Shown: positions 14,880-25,153 of the stretch, piece by piece
How the letters are laid out: every line of letters starts with the position of its first letter
Position numbering within the stretch: the first letter of the stretch is position 1
Source of the DNA: Thermodesulfobacteriota bacterium
GTDB taxonomy: Bacteria > Desulfobacterota > Desulfarculia > JACQYL01
Direction: 5' to 3'
DNA length: 64,000 nt
Assembly: GCA_963675595.2 (NCBI GenBank)
Contig: CAXXLZ010000002.1
Coordinates: forward strand, 3,872,001-3,936,000
Translations under genes and position numbers: made by a program
The notes under the pieces: generated by a model
Told to the model about the DNA's origin: nothing
Databases searched by the model: none
The model's input: the letters and a program-made list of their open reading frames with translations, nothing else

Positions 14880-16046
14880 ATGGAACGCAAAGAGATCATT
14901 TCCGTAAAAGGAGTCAACAAGAGCTTCAAAGGCGTCCAGGTTCTCAACAACGTGAACCTCGCGGTTTACGAGAAGGAAACCCTTGGAATTATCGGAAAGA
15001 GCGGTGTGGGTAAGAGCCTCATTCTCAAGCACATCATCGGACTGATGAAGGCCGACTCGGGAGAGATTCTCGTGGACGGCGTGAACGTCGCCGAAGCGGG
15101 AAGAGGGGAACTGGAGAAGGTCCGTTCGCGAATGGGGTTCCTGTTTCAGAACGCGGCGCTTTTCGACAGCATGACCGTGTTTGAAAATATTGCCCTTCCT
15201 TTACGGGAGACAACGAAACTGAGCGAAAAGCAGATCGATGATCGCGTCGTGGATTTGCTGGACCATGTGGGGCTGGAGGCCGCCCGCGACAAGTATCCAC
15301 CTCAGTTGAGCGGTGGAATGAAAAAGCGGGTGGGCTTGGCTCGGGCGCTCGTGAATAATCCGGACATTATTCTCTTTGATGAGCCCACGACGGGCTTGGA
15401 CCCGTTACGCAAGAATGCGGTTCATGAATTGATTGCGCACAGCCAGAGACATCACGGTTTCACCGCGGTGATCGTCAGCCATGAAATTCCCGACATCTTC
15501 AATATCACCGATCGTATCGCCATGATCGACCAGGGCGCGATCGTAGTGGACGTGCCTACGACGGAAATCACCAAAGTGAAGAATCCCACTTTTCTTAATT
15601 TCATTTCGGGCGCTCCCAGTTTCCAAAGTCCGCGGGCGGGGCTCGCGAGCCGGGTTGAGTTCGAAGCCCGTGTCGGCGAGGAGCATGAGCGTTCCAAACG
15701 ATATGGTGATCCTTTCACGGTTGTTTTCCTGAGGTTGGGGATTCCTCAGAGCGATACGCTGATGGAGCAATGGCATCTTGATCTTGCTCATATTTTGAGA
15801 AAGAAACTGCGCGTCGCAGACATGATCGGCCGTTTCGACGAACGATGCATCGCTTTCATTCTTCCCGGCACGACCAAGGAGGGAGCGACGCAATTGGCCG
15901 GGAGAATCGGCGGGTTGGTTCGTGAAGCCTTGACGCGGGACGATGAACGCTTGAACCCGAGACTCACTTATGGTTATTCTGAATATGAAGAGAAGAAGAC
16001 CCCGGAAATGATGTTGCAGGAAGCTATTCTCGAGTTGAGAGCGTAA
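14880..16046 (+). CDS. MlaF/Mkl-type ABC ATPase fused to a degenerate GGDEF domain
   Basis: Walker A GKSGVGKS, FLFQNAALFDSMTVFEN, LSGGMKKRVGLAR, ILFDEPTTGLDP; C-terminal RSKRYGDPFTVV...LRVADMIGRFDER. Confidence 0.85.
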   Translation: MERKEIISVKGVNKSFKGVQVLNNVNLAVYEKETLGIIGKSGVGKSLILKHIIGLMKADSGEILVDGVNVAEAGRGELEKVRSRMGFLFQNAALFDSMTVFENIALPLRETTKLSEKQIDDRVVDLLDHVGLEAARDKYPPQLSGGMKKRVGLARALVNNPDIILFDEPTTGLDPLRKNAVHELIAHSQRHHGFTAVIVSHEIPDIFNITDRIAMIDQGAIVVDVPTTEITKVKNPTFLNFISGAPSFQSPRAGLASRVEFEARVGEEHERSKRYGDPFTVVFLRLGIPQSDTLMEQWHLDLAHILRKKLRVADMIGRFDERCIAFILPGTTKEGATQLAGRIGGLVREALTRDDERLNPRLTYGYSEYEEKKTPEMMLQEAILELRA

Positions 16047-16302
16047 CGCCGATTTGTCTGCCGCAGTGATTCGACTCTCCTGAACCGGATCGACCCGGTG
16101 TACGGGAAACCGTCCTTCGGTTTTCATGGTCGATCGGCAGGCCTGCTCGATAGAGTTCCAACGACCATTTCATGAAACTCCGGTGTGACCGAATCCCAGG
16201 CTCCCTTGGTTTGATTGGACAAGCTTGAGAGCAACAACATGTTGCGGCCGGTCGACGTCGGGGAGATTCTGATTCTTCCGAGGTGGAAGCGAGGAAATAG
16301 AG

Positions 16303-16560
16303 ATGGAGAGAAGAATCGCCGAGATCATTATTGAACAGCTCCAGTTGGAAGACGTGACTCCGGACACGTTTGATCCGGACCTTCACCTGATCGATGAGGT
16401 GGGTATCGACAGCATGGAACTGGCCACCATCACCATTGTGCTCCAGGACGAGTATGGAATCCGAATCCCGGAGGACGATTACCCCGACCTCCTGACCTTA
16501 CGCGCGATTGCGGCCTATGTTCGAGAGAAACAGGCCGAAAAGGAGAGTAAGGTCGCGTGA
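16303..16560 (+). CDS. Acyl carrier protein
   Basis: 85 aa, acidic, GIDSMEL phosphopantetheinylation motif. Confidence 0.9.
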   Translation: MERRIAEIIIEQLQLEDVTPDTFDPDLHLIDEVGIDSMELATITIVLQDEYGIRIPEDDYPDLLTLRAIAAYVREKQAEKESKVA

Positions 16561-16687
16561 GCCTGCCTGAGGTGCCGAATGGATTCGTCGATCATCGGGA
16601 CGGGACCGGGCTTCCGAGATGGAATGAAGGCCCGAGAGGAGTGGTGTGTACGTTTGGGTGCGGTGAGGATGACGGGGTGCGGCCCAG

Positions 16688-17692
16688 ATGAAGTTTCAGG
16701 AGATGCTCGAGATTCCCGATGTGGGGCAACGCTGGGACCGGGTCCGGCGTTTCTTTTTTTTGCGTGAGTCCACTTACGACATGACCCGCAACTGCAACCT
16801 GAGATGCAAGGGCTGCTATTATTACAGAGGTGACAAGAGCAAGACTCGAGACGAAACGGATCCGGAGAAGTGGAAAGCGCTTTTCATGTCCGAAAAAGAT
16901 CGGGGCATCACCTACGTGGTTTTGGCGGGGGCGGAGCCCTCGCTGGTTCCTGAGCTTTGCAGCGCGGCCTTCGACGTCATCCCTATCGGCTGCATCGCAA
17001 CCAACGGACTCGAGAAGATTCCGGAGACCGTGGGGTACAATATCCACGTTTCGGTGTGGGGAAACGACCGGGAAAGCGAGACGGTGCGGGGCGCAGTCTG
17101 CCTGGAACGGCAACTCGCGAATTACGCCGCGGATCCCCGGGCGGTATTCATCTATACCTTCACGGGAAGAAACATCAAACAGGCCGAGGAAGTGGCCGTG
17201 GATATTCTCGACCGTGGAGGAAAGCTGAGTTTCAATCAGTTCAGCGCTCCTGTAGGTTACAAAGGGGATCTCCGCCTGAACGACCGGGACCGTCGAGCCA
17301 TGGCCGAAGTCATGGGAGAGCTCCTTCGAGCCTATCCGGACCGCGTGCTTTATTCCCCTTACAGCATAGACGTTCACTCGGGAGAGCGGTCCCTTCACCA
17401 GCGGTTCGGCTGTCCGTATCCCAGACGCAATCCGAACGCAGTGATCGGTCTTGGAAAGTCCTTCCGTCAGTATCGAACCGATCTGACCTGGGACATGGGG
17501 GCGGCATGCTGCGTACCGGATACGGATTGCGATGATTGTCGTCACTATGCGGCGGGGTCGGCCATCGTGACTTCTCGCCTCAAGCAACACGTGGATTGTC
17601 TGGACGATTTTCTGGCATGGCTCGACTACGTGGACACCTACCTCTCCGTCTGGGTCCGGGGGTACACCAGAAGCCCCAACCCGGCGCCGTAA
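16688..17692 (+). CDS. Radical SAM protein (paralog 1) with C-terminal Cys cluster
   Basis: CNLRCKGC (CxxxCxxC), GAEP motif, C-terminal C...CCVPDTDCDDC. Confidence 0.92.
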   Translation: MKFQEMLEIPDVGQRWDRVRRFFFLRESTYDMTRNCNLRCKGCYYYRGDKSKTRDETDPEKWKALFMSEKDRGITYVVLAGAEPSLVPELCSAAFDVIPIGCIATNGLEKIPETVGYNIHVSVWGNDRESETVRGAVCLERQLANYAADPRAVFIYTFTGRNIKQAEEVAVDILDRGGKLSFNQFSAPVGYKGDLRLNDRDRRAMAEVMGELLRAYPDRVLYSPYSIDVHSGERSLHQRFGCPYPRRNPNAVIGLGKSFRQYRTDLTWDMGAACCVPDTDCDDCRHYAAGSAIVTSRLKQHVDCLDDFLAWLDYVDTYLSVWVRGYTRSPNPAP

Positions 17693-17705
17693 AGGAAATC
17701 CTTTC

Positions 17706-18704
17706 ATGAAGATGGTTCGAGACCTGCTGACCCCCGAGACGACAGCCCGGTATCAGGCCGTCAGCAATCTTAACATGCGGAGCTCCATATACGATGTGAC
17801 CAACCGGTGCAATCTTCGGTGCAAAGGCTGCTTTTTTTTCTCGAGCGGACAGGACAGAGGGCTCCAAGACGAACCGGATATTGATAAATGGGAAGAATTC
17901 ATTCTCGAAGAGAAACGGCGTGGGGTGAACATGGCCATCCTCATCGGGGGCGAACCCACCCTGTTTCCAGAGCGAGTCGAGCGGTTCCAGCGGCACATGA
18001 AAACGTTCTGCGCCACCAATGGATTGATCCGAATGCCCAGGGAACGTTTCCCGGACATGATGGTGGGAATTTCGCTGTGGGGCTCCGAGGAGGACGAAAT
18101 CGCACTGCGTGGGAAGAACACGTTCCGTACCTCTTTGGAGCATTACCGTGGCGATCCGAACGTCTATTATTTGTATACGATCACTCCGGGGCGTCTCTCG
18201 GCGGTGGAGAAAATGACCAAACGAATCGGGGACGCGGGTTTGAGAGTGCACTACCAGTTGCTCTCCAATGATGAAAATGTTCCCGGATTCACGTTCGACC
18301 TCGAGGAAAAGCGCCGGGTCCGGGATCTTCTGGACGACCTATTGGAGCGCTATCCTCAAGTGGTCATTTCTTCTCACTACTATCACCGAGTGCTGATTAC
18401 CGGCGAGATGATGGGCCGGAAGTGGGGATGGATGGAGTGTCCCTCCGTATCCGAACGGAAGGACCCGCGAAATCCCAGGCCCAAGAGCCTGCCCGGATTC
18501 AACTCGTGGGCCAGCGATCTTAAGACCCTGCACCGGTGTTGCACATCGGATACGCGGAATTGCGATGCCTGTTTCGATGGCGCAGCCCGGATGAGCTGGG
18601 TGATGGTCAACAAGAGACTCCACATGTCCTCCAGAACGGATTTCGAGAACTGGTTGGAGGTCATGGAGATGTTCGCCAAGCTCTATCGTTACGTGCCTTG
18701 GTGA
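17706..18704 (+). CDS. Radical SAM protein (paralog 2) with C-terminal Cys cluster
   Basis: CNLRCKGC, GGEPTL, ATNG, C-terminal C...CCTSDTRNCDAC. Confidence 0.92.
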   Translation: MKMVRDLLTPETTARYQAVSNLNMRSSIYDVTNRCNLRCKGCFFFSSGQDRGLQDEPDIDKWEEFILEEKRRGVNMAILIGGEPTLFPERVERFQRHMKTFCATNGLIRMPRERFPDMMVGISLWGSEEDEIALRGKNTFRTSLEHYRGDPNVYYLYTITPGRLSAVEKMTKRIGDAGLRVHYQLLSNDENVPGFTFDLEEKRRVRDLLDDLLERYPQVVISSHYYHRVLITGEMMGRKWGWMECPSVSERKDPRNPRPKSLPGFNSWASDLKTLHRCCTSDTRNCDACFDGAARMSWVMVNKRLHMSSRTDFENWLEVMEMFAKLYRYVPW

Positions 18705-20029
18705 AGGAAGCGGGACCGGTGCCGGATCCCTACCGTATGAATTTTTCCCCGACGTCCCCCGACAACGGCATTTCCCGAGGAAAGGCTGTTGTAATCGTGT
18801 CTCACGATTGCATCACCCCTTTAGGCGACGGCTCCGATGCCACCTTCCGAAACGCTCTGGAAAGCCGTTCCGGAATCCGCAGGCTCACGTGCATCGACAC
18901 GGACGGAATCCCGGTCAAGTTCGGGGGTGAGGCCGTCAGGCCCGACTTGTCTCACTATCCTTTTCTTTCCGCTCGGGAGCTCAAGAACTGGTTTTCTCCC
19001 GTCATTCCCCACGCCCTGATCGTGGTGCATCGGGCGCTGCGAAAGTCCGGCTTGATCATAGATGAATCCAATCGAGAGCGAATCGGGATGCTGGTTTCAT
19101 CGGCCATCGGAGGCGTGGGGGCGGTCCTCGCCGCTCATGACGCCATGGCCGCCGGGCGTCTGCCCCACCCTTTCTCCAACCCCAATACGTGTCTCAACAT
19201 GATTGGCGGCAAAGCGGCCATTATGTCGGGAGCCGGGGGGCCTATTTACTCCCCGGTGGCTGCCTGCGCCACCGGAGCCGTGTCCGTGGCCTGCGGGGTT
19301 TCCATGATTCAATCGGGTCGGGTGGACGCGGCCGTTTGCGGAGCCGTTGATTTCCCGCTTCATCCCACCATCTTGACCGGGTTCGCCACAATGAACGGCG
19401 TATTTCAAAGTGATGATCCCCGGGATCGTTCGCAGAGCGCCCCCGCCCTCAGTTGTCGTCCGTTCAGTGAAGACAGGAAAGGCTTTTTGGTTTCCGAGGG
19501 TGCGGCGGCGCTGATCCTCGCGTCGGAGTCTTATGCCCGAGCCAAAGGGTTGCCGGTGGAAGGATATGTGGCCGGGATCGGCATGAACTCGGACGCCCAT
19601 CATTTCGTGGTTCCTTTCCAAGAAACTATTACCCGATGCATGCAAATCGCTCTGGATGACGCGGGAATCGAACCGGGCGATGTGGACTACGTCAATGCGC
19701 ATGCGGCTTCCACCCGAGTAGGGGACGCCGTTGAGGTGCGGGCTCTGGAAGACGTTTTCGGTCGAGAGGCTCGCGTTCCGGTGAGTTCCAACAAGTCCCA
19801 GTTGGGGCACACCATGGGCGCTTCCAGCGCCATCGAGATCATCCTTTGTCTCATGGGCATGAAGGAGGGATGGATTCTCCCCACCATCAACCTCTTGCCG
19901 GACCCGGAGTTCGCCCTTGACTTCGTCCCCCACAAACCTCGTCGAGCCGACCTGCGGTACGTGCTGTCCAACTCCTTCGGTTTCGGGGGCTGCAACTGCT
20001 GTGTGATTCTCAGGAGGGCGGACTGTTGA
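18701..20029 (+). CDS. Beta-ketoacyl-ACP synthase, FabF-like (KS1)
   Basis: AACATG (Cys), NAHAAST (His), KSQLGHT (His), SNSFGFGG; start GTG 18701 overlapping the upstream stop, or ATG 18737. Confidence 0.93.
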   Translation: MKEAGPVPDPYRMNFSPTSPDNGISRGKAVVIVSHDCITPLGDGSDATFRNALESRSGIRRLTCIDTDGIPVKFGGEAVRPDLSHYPFLSARELKNWFSPVIPHALIVVHRALRKSGLIIDESNRERIGMLVSSAIGGVGAVLAAHDAMAAGRLPHPFSNPNTCLNMIGGKAAIMSGAGGPIYSPVAACATGAVSVACGVSMIQSGRVDAAVCGAVDFPLHPTILTGFATMNGVFQSDDPRDRSQSAPALSCRPFSEDRKGFLVSEGAAALILASESYARAKGLPVEGYVAGIGMNSDAHHFVVPFQETITRCMQIALDDAGIEPGDVDYVNAHAASTRVGDAVEVRALEDVFGREARVPVSSNKSQLGHTMGASSAIEIILCLMGMKEGWILPTINLLPDPEFALDFVPHKPRRADLRYVLSNSFGFGGCNCCVILRRADC

Positions 20030-21291
20030 GAGCGCCGGAAAACCATCGGGTATTCGTGGTGGGTTACGCGGTTTCCACGGCGCTGGGCCACGGATTGAAA
20101 CGCACGTGGGAGCGGGCGCTCAAGGGAGAATCGGGAATTCGGCGCATCACGCGTTTCGATCCCAAAGAATATAAGGTATGCACCGCCGGTGAGATACCGG
20201 ACTTCGATCCCTCATCCTATCCGTTTCTTACGCGCCGCGAACTCAGAAACTGGCACGCCGGATTCGTACCCCTCACCATGGCGCTGTGCCATGACGCTTT
20301 GGCGGATGCGGGGTTCGAGATCAAGGAAGCGGACGCAGGCCGTGTGGGAGCCGTTATCGGCTCCGCCATCAATGGTTGCGACGCCTTCGAATCGAACCTC
20401 AAAGCCCTGGAAGCCGGGGGCGCGAACAAAGTCAGCCCCTACCTGTTGCCCAATGTGTGCGCCAACCTGCCGGCGGGAAAAGCCTCCATGCTCGTGGGGT
20501 TCAAAGGTCCCCTGTTCGCCGTGGAGAGCGCCTGTGCCACGGGCAACCATTGCATTGCGGAAAGCGCCCGGATCATTCAGCGAGGCGATGCCGACGCGAT
20601 GCTGGCGGGAGGGATCGAACTCCCTTTGCTCGAAGCGATTAACTGCGGCTTCGGGAACATGAACGCCACCTTTTCCGCCCGCGGAGGAGACCGGGCCGTG
20701 GATCGTCCGGAGTTGGGCTCCCGGCCCTACAGCGTGGACCGCAAAGGTTTCGTTCTCGCCGAAGGAGGCGCGGTGCTCGTCCTGGCTTCCGAGGGTTTCG
20801 CGTTGCGTAACGGTTTGGGGCTCAGGGCGGAAGTGTTGGGCACGGCCATGACTTCGGACGCCCATCACTTCACCCAGCCCAACGAGGACGCGGTGACCCG
20901 CTGTATTTCCCTGTGCCTGAGGGATGCGGGAATCGATGCGGCCGAAGTGGACGTGATCAACGGCCACGGCACGTCGACGGTTTCGGGAGATTCCGTGGAA
21001 GTGCACAGTCTTCGAAACGTATTCGGTGAAGGTCTGGCGCGAATCCCCATTGTCTCGAACAAATCGCAGTTGGGCCATTCACTGGGCGCCGCCGCGGCCA
21101 TCGAAGCCGTGTTGGCCGTTGAGGGAATGAAACGCGGAATGCTCTCTCCCACGATCAATTACATAGAGGATCCTGAGTCTGCCGATCTGGATTTCGTCTC
21201 CGAAGGGGCGCGCCCTTTTGAGCACCGAATCGTGCTGTCCAATTCGTTCGGCTTCGGTGGAACCAATTGCTGTGTGGTATTCCGGAAATGA
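20026..21291 (+). CDS. Beta-ketoacyl-ACP synthase, FabF-like (KS2)
   Basis: SACATG, NGHGTST, KSQLGHS, SNSFGFGGTN; 4-bp overlap with KS1. Confidence 0.93.
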   Translation: MRAPENHRVFVVGYAVSTALGHGLKRTWERALKGESGIRRITRFDPKEYKVCTAGEIPDFDPSSYPFLTRRELRNWHAGFVPLTMALCHDALADAGFEIKEADAGRVGAVIGSAINGCDAFESNLKALEAGGANKVSPYLLPNVCANLPAGKASMLVGFKGPLFAVESACATGNHCIAESARIIQRGDADAMLAGGIELPLLEAINCGFGNMNATFSARGGDRAVDRPELGSRPYSVDRKGFVLAEGGAVLVLASEGFALRNGLGLRAEVLGTAMTSDAHHFTQPNEDAVTRCISLCLRDAGIDAAEVDVINGHGTSTVSGDSVEVHSLRNVFGEGLARIPIVSNKSQLGHSLGAAAAIEAVLAVEGMKRGMLSPTINYIEDPESADLDFVSEGARPFEHRIVLSNSFGFGGTNCCVVFRK

Positions 21292-21770
21292 TTCTACGTT
21301 TCAAGATATCCTCATGCGAGGAGGAAGGCGTTTGTCTTGAGGGCGATACGGGGCTTCCGTGGTTCCATACCACACTCCGTGTTCTGTATGCGGACACGGA
21401 CCGCTCCGGCGTGGTGTATCACGCCAATTACCTCAAGTATTTCGAGGTCGGGCGTGCGGCTTTGATGCGTGCTTCGGGCTTTCCCTACAAAGAGGTGGAG
21501 GCCGGCGGATACACGCATCCCATTGTCGAATTGGGGATCAACTTTCAGTCCTACGCCCGTTACGATGACCTCCTTCGCGTGTACTCCCGACCGAAGACGC
21601 TGGAGCGGGTGCGGTTCATTTTCGACTATCGGATCACGAACGAAGCCGGGGACCGCGTGCTGGTGTACGGCTTCACCAGACACTGCTGCTTGAGTCCCAA
21701 ACTCAACCCCGTGGCCGTGGACCCGGAGACGGTGGCGCTGTTTCGAAAATACGGTGCGGTCGAGACATAG
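21288..21770 (+). CDS. YbgC/4HBT-family hot-dog thioesterase
   Basis: RVLYADTDRSGVVYHANYLKYFEVGR; ATGA overlap with KS2. Confidence 0.9.
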   Translation: MILRFKISSCEEEGVCLEGDTGLPWFHTTLRVLYADTDRSGVVYHANYLKYFEVGRAALMRASGFPYKEVEAGGYTHPIVELGINFQSYARYDDLLRVYSRPKTLERVRFIFDYRITNEAGDRVLVYGFTRHCCLSPKLNPVAVDPETVALFRKYGAVET

Positions 21771-21861
21771 CGGCGTTCGACGGCATCGACAAGCAAGTCT
21801 CCGTCTTTGTTTCTTCCGAGGTCCGTGCTCGCGCGCAGGCGTTTACGACGGCGGTGAATCC

Positions 21862-22743
21862 ATGCCATTCTTTCCTTTTCTCACGCCCATACACCAAAAT
21901 TCCGGGACCGACGATTTCCGTCTGTTCGTGGGGCGTTTCGATGCAGATGAAACTCCTTGGCTCAGGGATCATATGATTGCCGGGAAAATCGTGCTGCCCG
22001 CGGCGTTGATTCTGGAAACGGTGTGCCGGGCGGCAAGCCTCGGGTTTCCCGGTCTGTCCTTGGATCGATACGAGTCGGCGGAGTTCACGAGATTCATCGA
22101 GTTGGACGCAAAAGGGGGAACCTCGGAGGTCTTCATCGGACTTTCCCCGGGTCCTTCCGACAAGGGCGAGGAAGGAGTCTGCGAGGTAAAGGTGTACACC
22201 CAGTTCTCCGCCGGTGGGCGTTTCCGACGAAAAAAGGTTCACCATTCGGGAAGGCTGTTTTTCGGGCATTCCGAGCCGTCGACGCCGACTCGAACCGTCG
22301 AGGACGATCCCGGGGCCCAACGTTGCCTGACGCGGGGGCGGGTCTACCCCGACTACGTGGACTTGGGGCCCGCTTTTCAGACGCTGGAGGGGGTTTTTCT
22401 CGTGGGTAACGATGAGATTCGGGCGGAGGTCGAATTGCGGGAAGAAGCCGTCCAAAGTTCTCCCACGGGCTCTGCACTACCGGGGCCTATCCTCCTGAGA
22501 GACGGATGCTTCCAACTCCCCTGCGTTTGGGGAAGGTTAGGCGGTGGCGAAATCCGCATCCCGAGTTCTTTCGGGTCCTTTCACTCCTATCGGTCGATTC
22601 GGGGGCGCCGCGTCGGCTGCCGGGCGGTCTCGGCAGGGGGAGATGAAAAGGAGCGATGGTTCGACCTCGATATTTTCGATGAGGATCGTACGCTGCTTGA
22701 AACGTACCGACGCATGGGGTTTCGTCGTCTTTTTGGGGCGTGA
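21862..22743 (+). CDS. Stand-alone PKS-type dehydratase (double hot-dog)
   Basis: WLRDHMIAGKIVLPAA (HxxxGxxxxP), GPAFQ, and DGCFQ (DxxxQ). Confidence 0.82.
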   Translation: MPFFPFLTPIHQNSGTDDFRLFVGRFDADETPWLRDHMIAGKIVLPAALILETVCRAASLGFPGLSLDRYESAEFTRFIELDAKGGTSEVFIGLSPGPSDKGEEGVCEVKVYTQFSAGGRFRRKKVHHSGRLFFGHSEPSTPTRTVEDDPGAQRCLTRGRVYPDYVDLGPAFQTLEGVFLVGNDEIRAEVELREEAVQSSPTGSALPGPILLRDGCFQLPCVWGRLGGGEIRIPSSFGSFHSYRSIRGRRVGCRAVSAGGDEKERWFDLDIFDEDRTLLETYRRMGFRRLFGA

Positions 22744-22840
22744 AACAGCCGAGCCTCGGCGGACCACGGGAAGACGGCCTCTCCGGCGGCCTTCCATCGG
22801 GCGATGCAGAGAGCGCAACTTCCCGAACTCCCCGCCTCGG

Positions 22841-24292
22841 TTAATGGTCGCCTTCGAACGGCTCTCCTCGAAGCAGGGCCTGTTCCGCCAGTGCGAGCTG
22901 TCTGCCGATGTACATGGCGTGATTGGTGTCGGATACCGCTTCGTCCAGAATGATCTGGTGTTGAATCTTCTCCGCCCGACGTCCTCGATATTCTTTTAAG
23001 GTGACGTTGTTGAACATGTGCTTGGCCACGATCCGGTCTTCTTCCACGGTGATCCTGAAATAGCCGTGGGGATCCTCCCTCAGGCGGTGTTTTCGTGATG
23101 CGGCGATTTGCAGCGCTTTCTCGTACTTCATACCGTGGGAAGGGTCCATGCTGATGGAATGACTGAATACGGTCAAGTTCCCTTTGGGGAGGTCGGCGAG
23201 TGCACACACTTTATCCAGCGCGGCCGTGAGGCCGTAGACGTTCATGAGCCAGGCGTCGATGGCGTTGTGTGTTCGATACAGGGCTGTGAGGTTGAGCTTG
23301 CCTTCGGACAGACGGAAAAAAACCGTAACCAGGCAGGGATTCGCTTTCCGCTCCCGAAAATCCGAGGCGGTGTCCCATAGAGAAATGAATTGATGACGGT
23401 TTTCCGGGTCCTCCGACAAGCGTCGAGCGGCCAGATTCAAGGTATCGCAGCCGAAGTAAGCCCCCAACCGGTTTCCGTAGGTGTATTCGATCAGAGGAGG
23501 CAACTCCGCATTCAGCATATCCTCCCGATATTTTCGGAAAGCCTCCGGGTCGAGCCCCAAAGCCTCCAACGTTGCGTCCGGTTCGGGGGTTGGATCGAGC
23601 ACGGCGACCTTGAGATTCTGTAATTCCTTTCGCACTCCCTTCCGGAGCTCCACCTTCCGTCCGAATCTCGAAAGCTTGAAAAGAACCTCTTTCCAGGCGG
23701 CCGACGGAGTCTGCTCGACGATGCAATGTCCTCCCGGCAGGCTCGGGAAGTGACCAATGGGGATCTCCTTGGCGGGCAGCTCGATACGGTCCGACTCGCG
23801 GGATTCGATTGGGCTTTGTTTGGGAAGCTCTCGGAAATAAGCGTGCAGCGCCGCGATGGACTCGGCGGTGGTCAGGGATCCGATGTGGTCGATGGAGGGC
23901 GGGCTTGAAAACAGTCCGGGGTGCAGCAGGTCGTCCATCACGGCCCGGGTTCCGCGGATCTTGTGGACGGTAACTCCGAGAAAATCCGCCTCTTCGACGC
24001 CGTGGGTAAAAAAACGTCGGAGCTCAACCAGGGAAGAGGAGCGGTTTCTTCCGCAAACGAGCAGTTGAGTCAGTTGGGGGTTGTATAGCAGGTTTCTCAG
24101 GAGTTGGGGCAGCCCATTGCCGTACAACGTGCCCAGAACCGCCACGGGGGAGTCCGAGCCCAGAGGAATTCCCTCTGCTCGGAGAATTTCCAGAACCTTG
24201 GCGGGCCTGGACCATAGAGTGATCACCCCCAAGAAGGCGGAGTCGTTGATCACGAGCAGCTTGTCTCGATAATACAGGGGGAGGAACTTCAT
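22841..24292 (-). CDS. Three-domain protein: MtrA-like N-terminus, thymidylate synthase-like core, DUF4346-like C-terminus
   Basis: VITLWS...GTLYGNGLPQLLRNLLYNPQL..LLVCG (MtrA-like); YTYGNRL, ISLWD, NPCL, YRTHN..DAWLMN (ThyA-like); DPHGYF...HAMYIGRQL..AE (DUF4346-like). Confidence 0.75.
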   Translation of the reverse strand: MKFLPLYYRDKLLVINDSAFLGVITLWSRPAKVLEILRAEGIPLGSDSPVAVLGTLYGNGLPQLLRNLLYNPQLTQLLVCGRNRSSSLVELRRFFTHGVEEADFLGVTVHKIRGTRAVMDDLLHPGLFSSPPSIDHIGSLTTAESIAALHAYFRELPKQSPIESRESDRIELPAKEIPIGHFPSLPGGHCIVEQTPSAAWKEVLFKLSRFGRKVELRKGVRKELQNLKVAVLDPTPEPDATLEALGLDPEAFRKYREDMLNAELPPLIEYTYGNRLGAYFGCDTLNLAARRLSEDPENRHQFISLWDTASDFRERKANPCLVTVFFRLSEGKLNLTALYRTHNAIDAWLMNVYGLTAALDKVCALADLPKGNLTVFSHSISMDPSHGMKYEKALQIAASRKHRLREDPHGYFRITVEEDRIVAKHMFNNVTLKEYRGRRAEKIQHQIILDEAVSDTNHAMYIGRQLALAEQALLRGEPFEGDH

Positions 24293-24294
24293 GT

Positions 24295-24906
24295 TCAGGG
24301 GTTCTTTTCGAAATTGCCCCGCGGTCCTCCAACGTTTTGAAAGGCGGAATTGAAGTCTCTGTAGAGGCGTTTATTGAATTGAATCCGATGCCATTTCTTC
24401 ACGTAACCCGCAGGAATGTCTTCTCGGATTTCCAGTTTGTCCCAACCGCCGGGGATGGGGAAGGCGTAGTAGGGCAGATGTCGGGGAACACCTCGGACGT
24501 AAATCACCTGGGGGATCTTCCACTCCAGGTACGAGAGGTAGACTCGGTGCATGCCGTCGTTAACCAGCAGATGTACGGAGCCGTCGTCCTCGAAGGATTC
24601 CTCGATGACGGGCGGAAGCAGGTCCACGGGTTGTTCGAAGCCTTCCAACGTCAGACGGACGAACCCGTTCAGGCGAAAGAGATCAACACCGTGTTCCTCG
24701 AGGGCCCACTTGAGATTTCGGACTTTTTCCAGTTCGGTACGGAGGAGATAATACTGGGGAGGGGAAAGATGCCGCGTATGAATCCGTTCGAGGCTGATCA
24801 GCGCGTCCCGATACACAAGGACTTCCGGGTCTTCCAGCATGCGGACCTCTTTCATGCGAGATACCAGATCGGTTTCGTTGAAACGTTCGACGTGCAGAAT
24901 GTTCAT
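24295..24906 (-). CDS. ParB/sulfiredoxin-like domain protein
   Basis: LSPPQ and LLPPVIEE...LLVNDGMHRV resemble the ParB/Srx xxDGxHR motif; GGAGG RBS; no HTH; 2 bp from the ThyA-like gene. Confidence 0.6.
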   Translation of the reverse strand: MNILHVERFNETDLVSRMKEVRMLEDPEVLVYRDALISLERIHTRHLSPPQYYLLRTELEKVRNLKWALEEHGVDLFRLNGFVRLTLEGFEQPVDLLPPVIEESFEDDGSVHLLVNDGMHRVYLSYLEWKIPQVIYVRGVPRHLPYYAFPIPGGWDKLEIREDIPAGYVKKWHRIQFNKRLYRDFNSAFQNVGGPRGNFEKNP

Positions 24907-25153
24907 TGGGCCTCCGAAGTAGGATGAACGAAAAAAAGTGCGCGAAAGAGGAGGGCGGGAGTCCGACATCGGGAAGAGACGCCCGTACTCCACAGGCTTG
25001 AATGATCCGGACGTGAGCCCGGGTATCGGCCGGAATCTTTCAGACGAAGGAAAGCGGAGGGGGGCTTCCGGGGTGGGCGCCTTTGGAAGACGACGAAACG
25101 ACGGCTAGGCGCGGAGGATACGACCAACCCGGTTCAAAACCCGGACCTGTGAT

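Follow-up and report, generated by a model that had tools for sequence, protein, structure and literature searches.

A conserved operon that ties a pair of radical SAM proteins to its own acyl carrier protein, a probable minimal module for a specialised lipid or polyketide

Little is understood of the ways in which anaerobes functionalise inert acyl chains, and the biosynthesis of ladderanes in particular has yet to be solved. Type II fatty acid synthase (FAS II) clusters of the anammox bacterium K. stuttgartiensis that contain radical S-adenosylmethionine (rSAM) proteins were reported to be syntenic with clusters of D. psychrophila, Geobacter and Pelobacter, and an anaerobic route to polyunsaturated fatty acids (PUFA) was proposed for them; according to the available text of the same paper, no ladderanes were found in D. 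psychrophila (Rattray 2009, PMC2649909). In K. stuttgartiensis, kuste3339 is a FabZ, kuste3340 an acyl carrier protein (ACP), kuste3341 a FabG, and kuste3342 and kuste3343 are 'SAM radical enzymes', accompanied by FabF paralogues and a deacetylase-like gene (Javidpour 2016, PMC4790861). The anammox clusters are themselves uncharacterised. Biosynthetic gene clusters (BGCs) of unknown function that antiSMASH calls 'ladderane' have been recorded in Desulfobacterota and Myxococcota, among other phyla (Geller-McGrath 2023, PMC9902471). A 2026 review of lipid-modifying rSAM enzymes lists, in its available portion, no rSAM enzyme acting on an acyl-ACP in a type II system (PMC13459092), and by the available parts of that review and of a preprint on amxFabF2/amxFabFmut (10.64898/2026.05.19.726425) these enzymes are all uncharacterised. 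Here we describe an operon with two rSAM genes at positions 16303-22743 of a 64,000-nucleotide stretch of a Thermodesulfobacteriota genome (contig CAXXLZ010000002.1, positions 3,872,001 to 3,936,000; the whole stretch is called the window below).

The operon is real and conserved, and is distinguished by a tightly conserved, probably twitch-like rSAM pair tied to a private ACP. We consider it probable that a widespread pathway, which builds a specialised lipid or polyketide on an ACP, has this operon as its minimal module, and that the rSAM pair modifies the tethered chain. The operon's kinship is best read as lying with the 'ladderane-type' or aryl-polyene-like lipid clusters, which are known from prediction only and were first noted in 2009, and the product is probably an unusual lipid made without oxygen. 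Seven co-oriented open reading frames (ORFs) had been named in a first-pass annotation of the sequence as encoding an ACP, two rSAM proteins, two ketosynthases (KS), a thioesterase (TE) and a dehydratase (DH) of polyketide synthase (PKS) type, and the ORF list together with Pfam and NCBIfam scans confirmed all seven, as follows:

16303..16560, plus strand: ACP, private acyl carrier protein, 85 aa, with a DSM serine (PF00550 PP-binding, E 4.8e-10)
16688..17692, plus strand: rSAM1, 334 aa, CX3CX2C motif at C36/C40/C43 (Radical_SAM, E 6e-8)
17706..18704, plus strand: rSAM2, 332 aa, CX3CX2C motif at C35/C39/C42 (Radical_SAM, E 2e-10)
18701..20029, plus strand: KS1, FabF-type ketosynthase with ketoacyl-synt N and C domains; start GTG 18701 or ATG 18737
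20026..21291, plus strand: KS2, FabF-type ketosynthase with ketoacyl-synt N and C domains (NF005589, 390.1 bits; cut-off 387)
21288..21770, plus strand: TE, 4HBT hotdog thioesterase of YbgC/FadM type (PF03061, E 3.4e-12; TIGR00051, 90.8 bits; cut-off 68.7)
21754..22743, plus strand: DH, stand-alone PKS-type double-hotdog dehydratase (PKS_DH_N PF21089 and PS-DH PF14765); start GTG 21754 or ATG 21862

The two rSAM proteins are paralogues with 29% identity. Both contain CNLRCKGC, which is invariant in an alignment of 18 rSAM1 sequences (A1) and in one of 17 rSAM2 sequences (A2). Five further cysteines are invariant in rSAM1 (C242, C274, C275, C281 and C284; pattern C-x31-CC-x5-C-x2-C in A1) and five in rSAM2 (C245, C278, C279, C286 and C289; pattern C-x32-CC-x6-C-x2-C in A2), where C102 is likewise invariant. 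The full SPASM motif has seven cysteines. Because the five extra cysteines fall short of that set, each protein likeliest carries a single twitch-like auxiliary cluster. No NCBIfam model exceeded 31 bits on either protein (28 bits or less on rSAM1) and every match was limited to the cluster-binding core; against PDB sequences the best E-value was 0.014. The AlphaFold2 model of rSAM1 (mean pLDDT 80.8, pTM 0.85; 49-73 in the Cys-rich region) was searched with Foldseek, which placed the SPASM/twitch enzymes CteB, SuiB, SkfB, BlsE, DesII and anSME closest (TM-score about 0.5, 13-19% identity), followed by MoaA, viperin and GDGT-MAS; the predicted fold of rSAM1 is therefore SPASM/twitch-like. An Atlas search returned only unnamed 'radical SAM' clusters, and JGI homologues of rSAM1 are named 'MoaA/NifB/PqqE/SkfB family' or 'organic radical activating enzyme'. 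No curated family, solved structure or paper describing the pair was found in the open literature, subscription journals and supplements lying outside the search. The earlier suggestion of an undescribed system thus holds in that no characterised BGC or curated family matches the rSAM proteins, and needs amending in that related clusters were reported in 2009 (PMC2649909) and antiSMASH 'ladderane' BGCs are on record (PMC9902471). A LipS1/LipS2-like lipoyl synthase was considered and rejected, as the homologue names denote another rSAM family and lipoate genes are not nearby.

How the two proteins relate to each other and to the ACP was examined in other genomes. A 706-aa ORF (L047:5959-8079, in genome G384, contig C29) is a complete rSAM1 fused to a complete rSAM2, and the same genome holds an unfused copy on another contig; no further rSAM1 fusion was seen at E ≤ 1e-20 among longer proteins, which by this search is weak evidence. 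Prediction of an rSAM1+rSAM2 complex from A1 and A2, run without controls, scored 0.00 against a mark of 0.32, which counts neither for nor against a complex. A metagenome contig of 42% GC (L154:10001-11255) encodes an rSAM1 homologue (43% identity) and, directly after it, an 86-aa ACP of its own, with neither rSAM2 nor KS; they lie in a polysaccharide locus with GDP-mannose 4,6-dehydratase, sulfotransferase, WcbI and GT61 genes. Since even this homologue has its own ACP, the constant partner of the rSAM1 family seems, from gene context, to be a carrier protein. A metagenome scan with the 43%-identity homologue P0126 gave one polysaccharide locus and no anammox-type cluster.

Conservation within the window's phylum was assessed on 401 sampled genomes. 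At E ≤ 1e-20, rSAM1 matches occurred in 31/401 genomes, comprising 30 orthologues (E ≤ 3.4e-81, 52-60% identity) and one distant match (34%), and all 30 orthologue genomes had the rSAM2 paralogue on the same contig. With tblastn, the complete set of seven genes was recovered from 15 of the 19 orthologous loci (19 kb each); the other four comprised one contig end, one locus with no DH match, one with no ACP match and one with a different layout. A large protein database gave 2073 homologues at E ≤ 0.001, the best 120 of which were the window's own protein and 119 proteins with 58-65% identity over at least 96% of the query. Among 1.84 billion cluster representatives, 478 matched at E ≤ 0.001 and 75 at E ≤ 1e-30, so the family is tight and well delimited; of 10 distant representatives two carried names, both Alphaproteobacteria-type metagenome-assembled genomes (MAGs).

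Relatives of rSAM1 were found in at least 563 genomes (one genome per species). The best 80 of these include, by title, Desulfosarcina variabilis, D. widdelii, D. cetonica, Desulfofustis glycolicus, Desulfogranum japonicum and D. mediterraneum; strain NaphS2, Smithella and Ca. Electrothrix; MAGs of Desulfobulbus, Desulfopila and Desulforhopalus; and MAGs labelled Myxococcota, Polyangia, Spirochaetes and Leptospirales, with no Planctomycetota label among the best 80. Neighbours of rSAM1 were counted in 80 named loci, each denominator being the loci with enough flank for the gene in question. ACP (53-75% identical among orthologues) lay directly upstream of rSAM1 in 75/78, rSAM2 was present in 72/73 and KS1 in 64/69, followed by KS2 (51/64), TE (49/63) and DH (46/58). 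Given these counts and the seven genes in 15/19 loci, the arrangement is, by comparison of gene order, far beyond chance. Whether the rSAM pair is conserved beside ACP and KS genes was the check that the first-pass annotation had set for itself, and the pair is so conserved, as the 30/30 genomes with rSAM2, the 15/19 loci and the ACP count attest.

Outside the window's phylum, orthologues were present in 5/301 genomes of the Myxococcota-labelled phylum and 18/301 of the Spirochaetes-labelled phylum. In these two phyla, identity to the window protein was 55-61% and did not differ from that inside the window's own phylum, which fits lateral spread. The Myxococcota-labelled loci carry ACP-rSAM1-rSAM2-KS1 only, followed by unrelated TPR genes, and since they carry just these four, we take ACP-rSAM1-rSAM2-KS1 to be the invariant core.

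The remaining enzymes were examined for active sites and family membership. The ACP scored below all NCBIfam housekeeping-ACP cut-offs (31.6-43.6 bits; cut-offs 66-146). The host genome has 8 PP-binding genes, a single fabD (C2:3563130) and a separate acpP-fabF pair (near C2:3591829-3593297), in agreement with the earlier view that the operon's ACP is a private one. Matches of KS1 and KS2 to the ketoacyl-synt N and C domains had E-values of 1e-29 to 1e-37. The Cys-His-Lys-His set is intact in both and is kept in 83/83 KS1 sequences (82 orthologues) and 70/70 KS2 sequences (69 orthologues), counted over overlapping locus sets that were not de-duplicated; because the set is complete in both, neither is a chain-length factor (CLF). 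KS1 reached 334.7 bits on TIGR03150 (cut-off 493.75). By PDB sequence matches KS1 and KS2 are closest to ordinary FabFs, and no chain labelled as an anammox FabF was identifiable among those matches, whose entry titles are generic. The best PDB sequence match of DH was the CurJ dehydratase (E 8e-6), and DH orthologues in other loci match PKS_DH_N and PS-DH as well. The DH translation contains HMIAGKIVLP and DGCFQ, which we take to be the H-x3-G-x4-P and D-x3-Q dehydratase motifs, respectively, and the TE translation contains a YADTD motif.

Several known systems were rejected as assignments for these genes. For housekeeping FAS II, ACP and KS1 were under the equivalog cut-offs and KS2 barely passed one subfamily model; for pfa-type PUFA synthase, TIGR02813 gave 52.7-56.4 bits (cut-off 1010) in the KS region only; and for cispentacin (AmcB/AmcF) and mycolate (AcpM/KasA) the matches were generic and below cut-off. 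The gene set is thus unlike housekeeping FAS II, aryl-polyene and pfa layouts, as had been proposed, with each test of membership negative.

Gene spacing was read from the junctions. The rSAM1-rSAM2 gap is 13 nt, and KS1 and KS2 meet in a TTGA overlap with AGGAGG ahead of it. Of the stop/start overlaps described earlier, that at KS1-KS2 is therefore present; that at KS2-TE is an ATGA overlap given the TE start at ATG 21288 (21267 is the start of the longest ORF only); and the GTGA overlap at rSAM2-KS1 exists only with the KS1 start at GTG 18701, ATG 18737 being equally possible. The DH start is ambiguous (21754 or 21862), and orthologue alignments open at query residue 40-69. Pfam and NCBIfam scans of the seven-gene operon found no ketoreductase (KR), enoyl reductase (ER), acyltransferase (AT), methyltransferase or B12 domain, and the window operon has no phosphopantetheinyl transferase (PPTase) or lipid-transfer gene.

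Elsewhere the seven genes are commonly part of a larger assembly, which was reconstructed by clustering flanking ORFs and annotating the representatives by Pfam and NCBIfam. The usual order begins with a divergent FabG, then [ACP] and a KS-CLF fusion of about 740 aa, a B12-binding rSAM (B12-rSAM), [a polysaccharide-deacetylase-like gene] and a FabA/ApeI-like DH, and continues with ACP-rSAM1-rSAM2-KS1-KS2-TE-DH, [a PlsY-like gene], a 137-aa ORF and an MMPL-methyltransferase fusion. Per loci with flank, the FabA/ApeI-like DH was present in 60/74, the B12-rSAM in 41/64, FabG in 32/53, the KS-CLF fusion in 24/55, the MMPL-methyltransferase in 25/50, the PlsY-like gene in 12/56 and a PlsC-like gene (with a third KS and a second ACP) in 7/40. 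In a few loci there are also additional B12-rSAMs, a DH-PPTase fusion, an AMP-ligase, an aromatic amino-acid lyase, GT2, a FakA/DegV fusion or an ApeP-like DH, and one spirochaete-labelled locus has a phytoene-dehydrogenase-like amine oxidase; no ER was found among the annotated accessory gene families. Several accessory proteins stay under their NCBIfam cut-offs: the B12-rSAM of a related locus scored 353.6 bits on TIGR04072 (cut-off 360), the PlsY-like protein 94 (cut-off 137) and FabG 299.7 on the flexirubin FlxB model (cut-off 340). The ORF of about 137 aa (cluster c8, for example L037:6648-7061), which lies between DH or the PlsY-like gene and the MMPL-methyltransferase in 29/56 related loci, has no Pfam or NCBIfam match and is absent from the window.

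TIGR04072 is named 'rSAM_ladder_B12, lipid biosynthesis B12-binding/radical SAM protein'; a literature search found no paper on TIGR04072 or 'rSAM ladder B12'. The window genome has a member at C2:2961018-2962364 (400.3 bits; cut-off 360), about 927 kb from the operon, so the statement that B12 domains are missing is right for the operon, as it is for KR, ER, AT and methyltransferase, and wrong for the genome. There, on the minus strand (G000:C2:2958600-2962400; L164:7645-11413), the TIGR04072 B12-rSAM is followed by a 402-aa KS and an 89-aa ACP, whereas most other genomes have the equivalent module immediately ahead of the twin-rSAM operon; the system is thus split in the window genome. A TIGR04072-like gene (E ≤ 1e-80) occurs in 28/30 twin-rSAM genomes and in 132/401 genomes overall, 79 of them over the cut-off. 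These counts are inflated by genome relatedness and do not amount to a statistical test; they suggest that the twin-rSAM module is an add-on in a subset of a much commoner TIGR04072 lipid system. On gene context, then, the seven genes are the apparent minimal form of a larger system that in most genomes includes aryl-polyene-like parts and a TIGR04072 B12-rSAM.

Other regions of the host genome with related domains were noted. One minus-strand stretch of about 22 kb (G000:C2:1582000-1605000) holds six or more paralogous genes for B12-binding rSAMs, at positions that include 1582588, 1592098, 1593387, 1598748 and 1603411, an unusual cobalamin rSAM array. In a large FAS/PKS-like region (G000:C1:453600-481300), a 1361-aa ORF matches KS twice and has a PP-binding site, and a 1008-aa ORF combines KS with PP-binding; two B12-rSAMs lie there as well, one of them TIGR04072-like (297 bits, sub-cut-off).

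The operon flanks in the window hold no lipid-synthesis genes. Directly upstream of ACP is a 426-aa ABC-transporter ATPase-GGDEF fusion (14766-16046, plus strand), which is not conserved beside the operon elsewhere. Just past the operon, two convergent genes on the minus strand (22841-24993) encode a 483-aa thymidylate-synthase-like (ThyX-like) and PterinBD-DUF4346 protein and a 232-aa ParB-CE domain protein. An Rfam scan of 13000-25000 gave no family at E ≤ 0.1, and hence no riboswitch. The promoter and terminator scan did not rise above shuffles, with 0 promoters and 6 terminator-like sites (8.1 expected). A 9-bp GC-rich hairpin with a T-run (16728-16761, plus strand) is terminator-like and lies within the conserved 5' coding region of rSAM1; it is probably a chance feature, since terminator-like sites are no commoner than in shuffles.

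From the domain content, active sites, conservation and neighbourhood of the genes, we infer an ACP-bound substrate, an rSAM chemistry, a product and a product fate. The private ACP would be primed and loaded in trans, since the operon lacks a PPTase and an AT and the genome has one fabD elsewhere. KS1 and KS2, both catalytically complete FabF-type enzymes, would extend the chain, and the PKS-type DH with a trans-acting KR (FabG is in the cluster in 32/53 related loci) would produce enoyl or polyenoyl intermediates, because no annotated accessory family is an ER. rSAM1 and rSAM2, probably as a pair, would then, without O2, abstract hydrogen from the ACP-tethered chain and join two carbons by cyclisation or cross-linking, a double bond being the less likely outcome, after which the hotdog TE would release the product or pass it on. 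The product would most likely end in a glycerolipid or an exported envelope lipid, as the PlsY-like, PlsC-like and MMPL neighbours in other genomes suggest.

Within this scheme, C-C bond formation by the rSAM proteins is a tentative possibility and desaturation a somewhat unlikely one, the rest of the weight falling to other radical chemistry. A bolder form, to which we give limited credence, is that rSAM1 and rSAM2 represent a new acyl-ACP-directed rSAM class, counterparts of kuste3342/3343, that makes O2-independent C-C bonds on a polyenoyl-ACP and so a new lipid class. Several observations weigh against the scheme as a whole. With no KR, AT, PPTase or lipid-transfer gene in the window operon, supply in trans has to be assumed. 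The PlsY-like (12/56) and PlsC-like (7/40) genes occur in a minority of loci, and the PlsY-like score is under its NCBIfam cut-off (94 vs 137 bits). The substrates of most SPASM/twitch rSAMs are peptides or small molecules, so that activity on an acyl-ACP would be a novelty in the fold group. The rSAM1-rSAM2 fusion is a single case, with no other at E ≤ 1e-20, and the co-occurrence counts carry the inflation from genome relatedness.

Other explanations were weighed on the same evidence. Under the 2009 proposal, which concerned FAS II clusters with rSAM genes in D. psychrophila and K. stuttgartiensis (PMC2649909), the rSAM proteins would carry out anaerobic desaturation, dehydrogenating a saturated or mono-unsaturated acyl-ACP to PUFA or to precursors of polyunsaturated hydrocarbons, with no ring or cross-link. 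D. psychrophila is reported to have polyunsaturated hydrocarbons (PMC2649909), rSAM dehydrogenases of twitch type are known (the fold matches include anSME and DesII), and the operon has neither an ER nor an O2-dependent desaturase. However, the D. psychrophila and anammox rSAMs are at most putative orthologues of rSAM1 and rSAM2; DH and KS without an ER already give double bonds, for which an rSAM is unneeded; and anammox bacteria are, in the available text of PMC10139942, without detected polyunsaturated or cyclopropyl fatty acids. As the module is in just 30/401 phylum genomes, it is not a general route to unsaturated fatty acids, and we regard this explanation as unlikely. Less likely still is that the operon plays an accessory part in making an aryl-polyene-like pigment or an outer-membrane polyene lipid; KS, DH and TE would then assemble a polyene, and the rSAM proteins would tailor not the growing chain but, for instance, the starter unit or head group. 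This would account for the ApeI-like and ApeP-like DHs of related loci, for the 299.7 bits of FabG on FlxB (cut-off 340), and for the aromatic amino-acid lyase, AMP-ligase, GT2, MMPL-methyltransferase and PlsC-like genes of some of them; TE presumably shares the hotdog superfamily with ApeK. Yet the window lacks the parts specific to aryl-polyene systems, both KSs are complete and so form no KS/CLF pair, the lyase, ligase and GT2 occur in only 2-3/20 loci, and the ACP-rSAM1-rSAM2-KS1 core stands alone in Myxococcota-labelled loci.

The rSAM pair might instead be a protein or peptide maturase acting on the carrier protein or an unannotated small peptide, with KS, TE and DH functionally separate. 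The best structural matches are maturases of ribosomally synthesised and post-translationally modified peptides (RiPPs), namely CteB, SuiB and SkfB, the weak NCBIfam matches are likewise RiPP maturases, and a 62-aa ORF (16579-16767) overlaps the ACP-rSAM1 gap. That ORF, however, also overlaps the conserved rSAM1 start, the NCBIfam matches cover the rSAM core only (E 1e-7 or weaker; 15-31 bits vs 170-720) and the TM-score is about 0.5; a RiPP recognition element, protease and transporter are absent from the operon, and the tight, translationally coupled synteny with KS genes extends across three phyla, so that we find a maturase very improbable. Two rSAM proteins with auxiliary-cluster cysteines also recall sulfur-inserting pairs, and the product could be no membrane lipid but a small cofactor or signal derived from an acyl chain, for example a short acid that has been rearranged or has gained sulfur, as lipoate and biotin do. 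The lipoyl synthase of M. tuberculosis ranks 50th among the fold matches and the window operon has no lipid-transfer gene, but JGI homologue names are not those of biotin- or lipoate-synthase families, lipoate and biotin genes are not nearby, the MMPL, PlsY and PlsC neighbours elsewhere point to lipids, and a patchy distribution of 1.7-7.5% is unlike that of an essential cofactor; to this explanation, too, we attach very little weight.

The reading of the operon as a module for an ACP-built lipid or polyketide gives the rSAM pair its interest: 55-65% identity over three phyla, no curated family, and co-occurrence with a TIGR04072 B12-rSAM. In the available text of PMC10139942 and PMC9821293, anammox bacteria have neither pure cultures nor genetic systems, and for that reason they offer no practical route to the chemistry. 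Cultured carriers (D. variabilis, D. widdelii, Desulfofustis glycolicus, Desulfogranum japonicum and D. mediterraneum) do offer one, and a new lipid made by sulfate reducers that abound in sediments could double as a biomarker. Were the pair an acyl-ACP-directed rSAM class and the counterpart, in cultivable hosts, of kuste3342/3343, there would be a new lipid class in sulfate reducers, cable bacteria, syntrophs, some Myxococcota and spirochaetes, and the chemistry of ladderane-type lipids would for the first time be open to tractable experiments.

Compared with known systems, the operon shares with Tes/GDGT-MAS and Mss the general picture of C-C-coupling rSAMs with auxiliary clusters that act on unactivated lipid carbons. 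The top NCBIfam match of rSAM2 is Tes, a weak one (30.8 bits vs a cut-off of 450, over about 60 residues of the rSAM core), and GDGT-MAS (7tol) is among the PDB sequence and fold matches of the rSAMs; no Hpn or Grs model is listed by NCBIfam for rSAM1 or rSAM2. Those enzymes differ in being about 490-530 aa long and in acting on complete membrane lipids, not on ACP-linked chains. Jaw5, the cyclopropanase of jawsamycin, belongs to the HemN-like rSAM class. It is alike in concept, as an rSAM that acts on a growing, carrier-bound unsaturated chain during iterative elongation (PMC13459092), whereas its partner is a type I iterative PKS and no search here showed a sequence relation. With aryl-polyene (APE)/flexirubin and highly reducing type II PKS systems the operon shares a discrete ACP, KS, DH and hotdog TE and the lack of an ER; related loci, though not the window, add ApeI/ApeP-like DHs, a FabG/FlxB-like KR, an MMPL exporter, a methyltransferase, GT2 and a PlsC-like gene. 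Unlike APE clusters, the window is without a KR, a KS/CLF or ApeI/P pair and an adenylating starter enzyme, and rSAM enzymes are not known from the APE systems described so far.

The anammox clusters differ in the state of their ketosynthases and in the type of dehydratase. In the preprint text available, the catalytic triad of amxFabFmut is dead (amxFabF2/amxFabFmut heterodimer), whereas KS1 and KS2 are intact (10.64898/2026.05.19.726425); the DH here is PKS-type and the anammox one a FabZ; and, in contrast to anammox Cluster I, the window operon has neither a phytoene-dehydrogenase-like gene nor a B12-rSAM. By gene order, kuste3339-3343 (FabZ, ACP, FabG, rSAM, rSAM) run closely parallel to the common order here of FabA/ApeI-like DH, ACP, rSAM1, rSAM2 (PMC4790861). 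A TIGR04072-like B12-rSAM stands beside related loci (41/64), and a TIGR04072 member elsewhere in the window genome, outside the window operon, and a polysaccharide-deacetylase-like gene occurs both in related loci and in anammox clusters (PMC2649909). The anammox 'ladderane' FAS II-like clusters (kuste3603-3608, kuste3335-3352 and kuste2802-2805) likewise combine a private ACP, FabF paralogues, a dehydratase and rSAM proteins.

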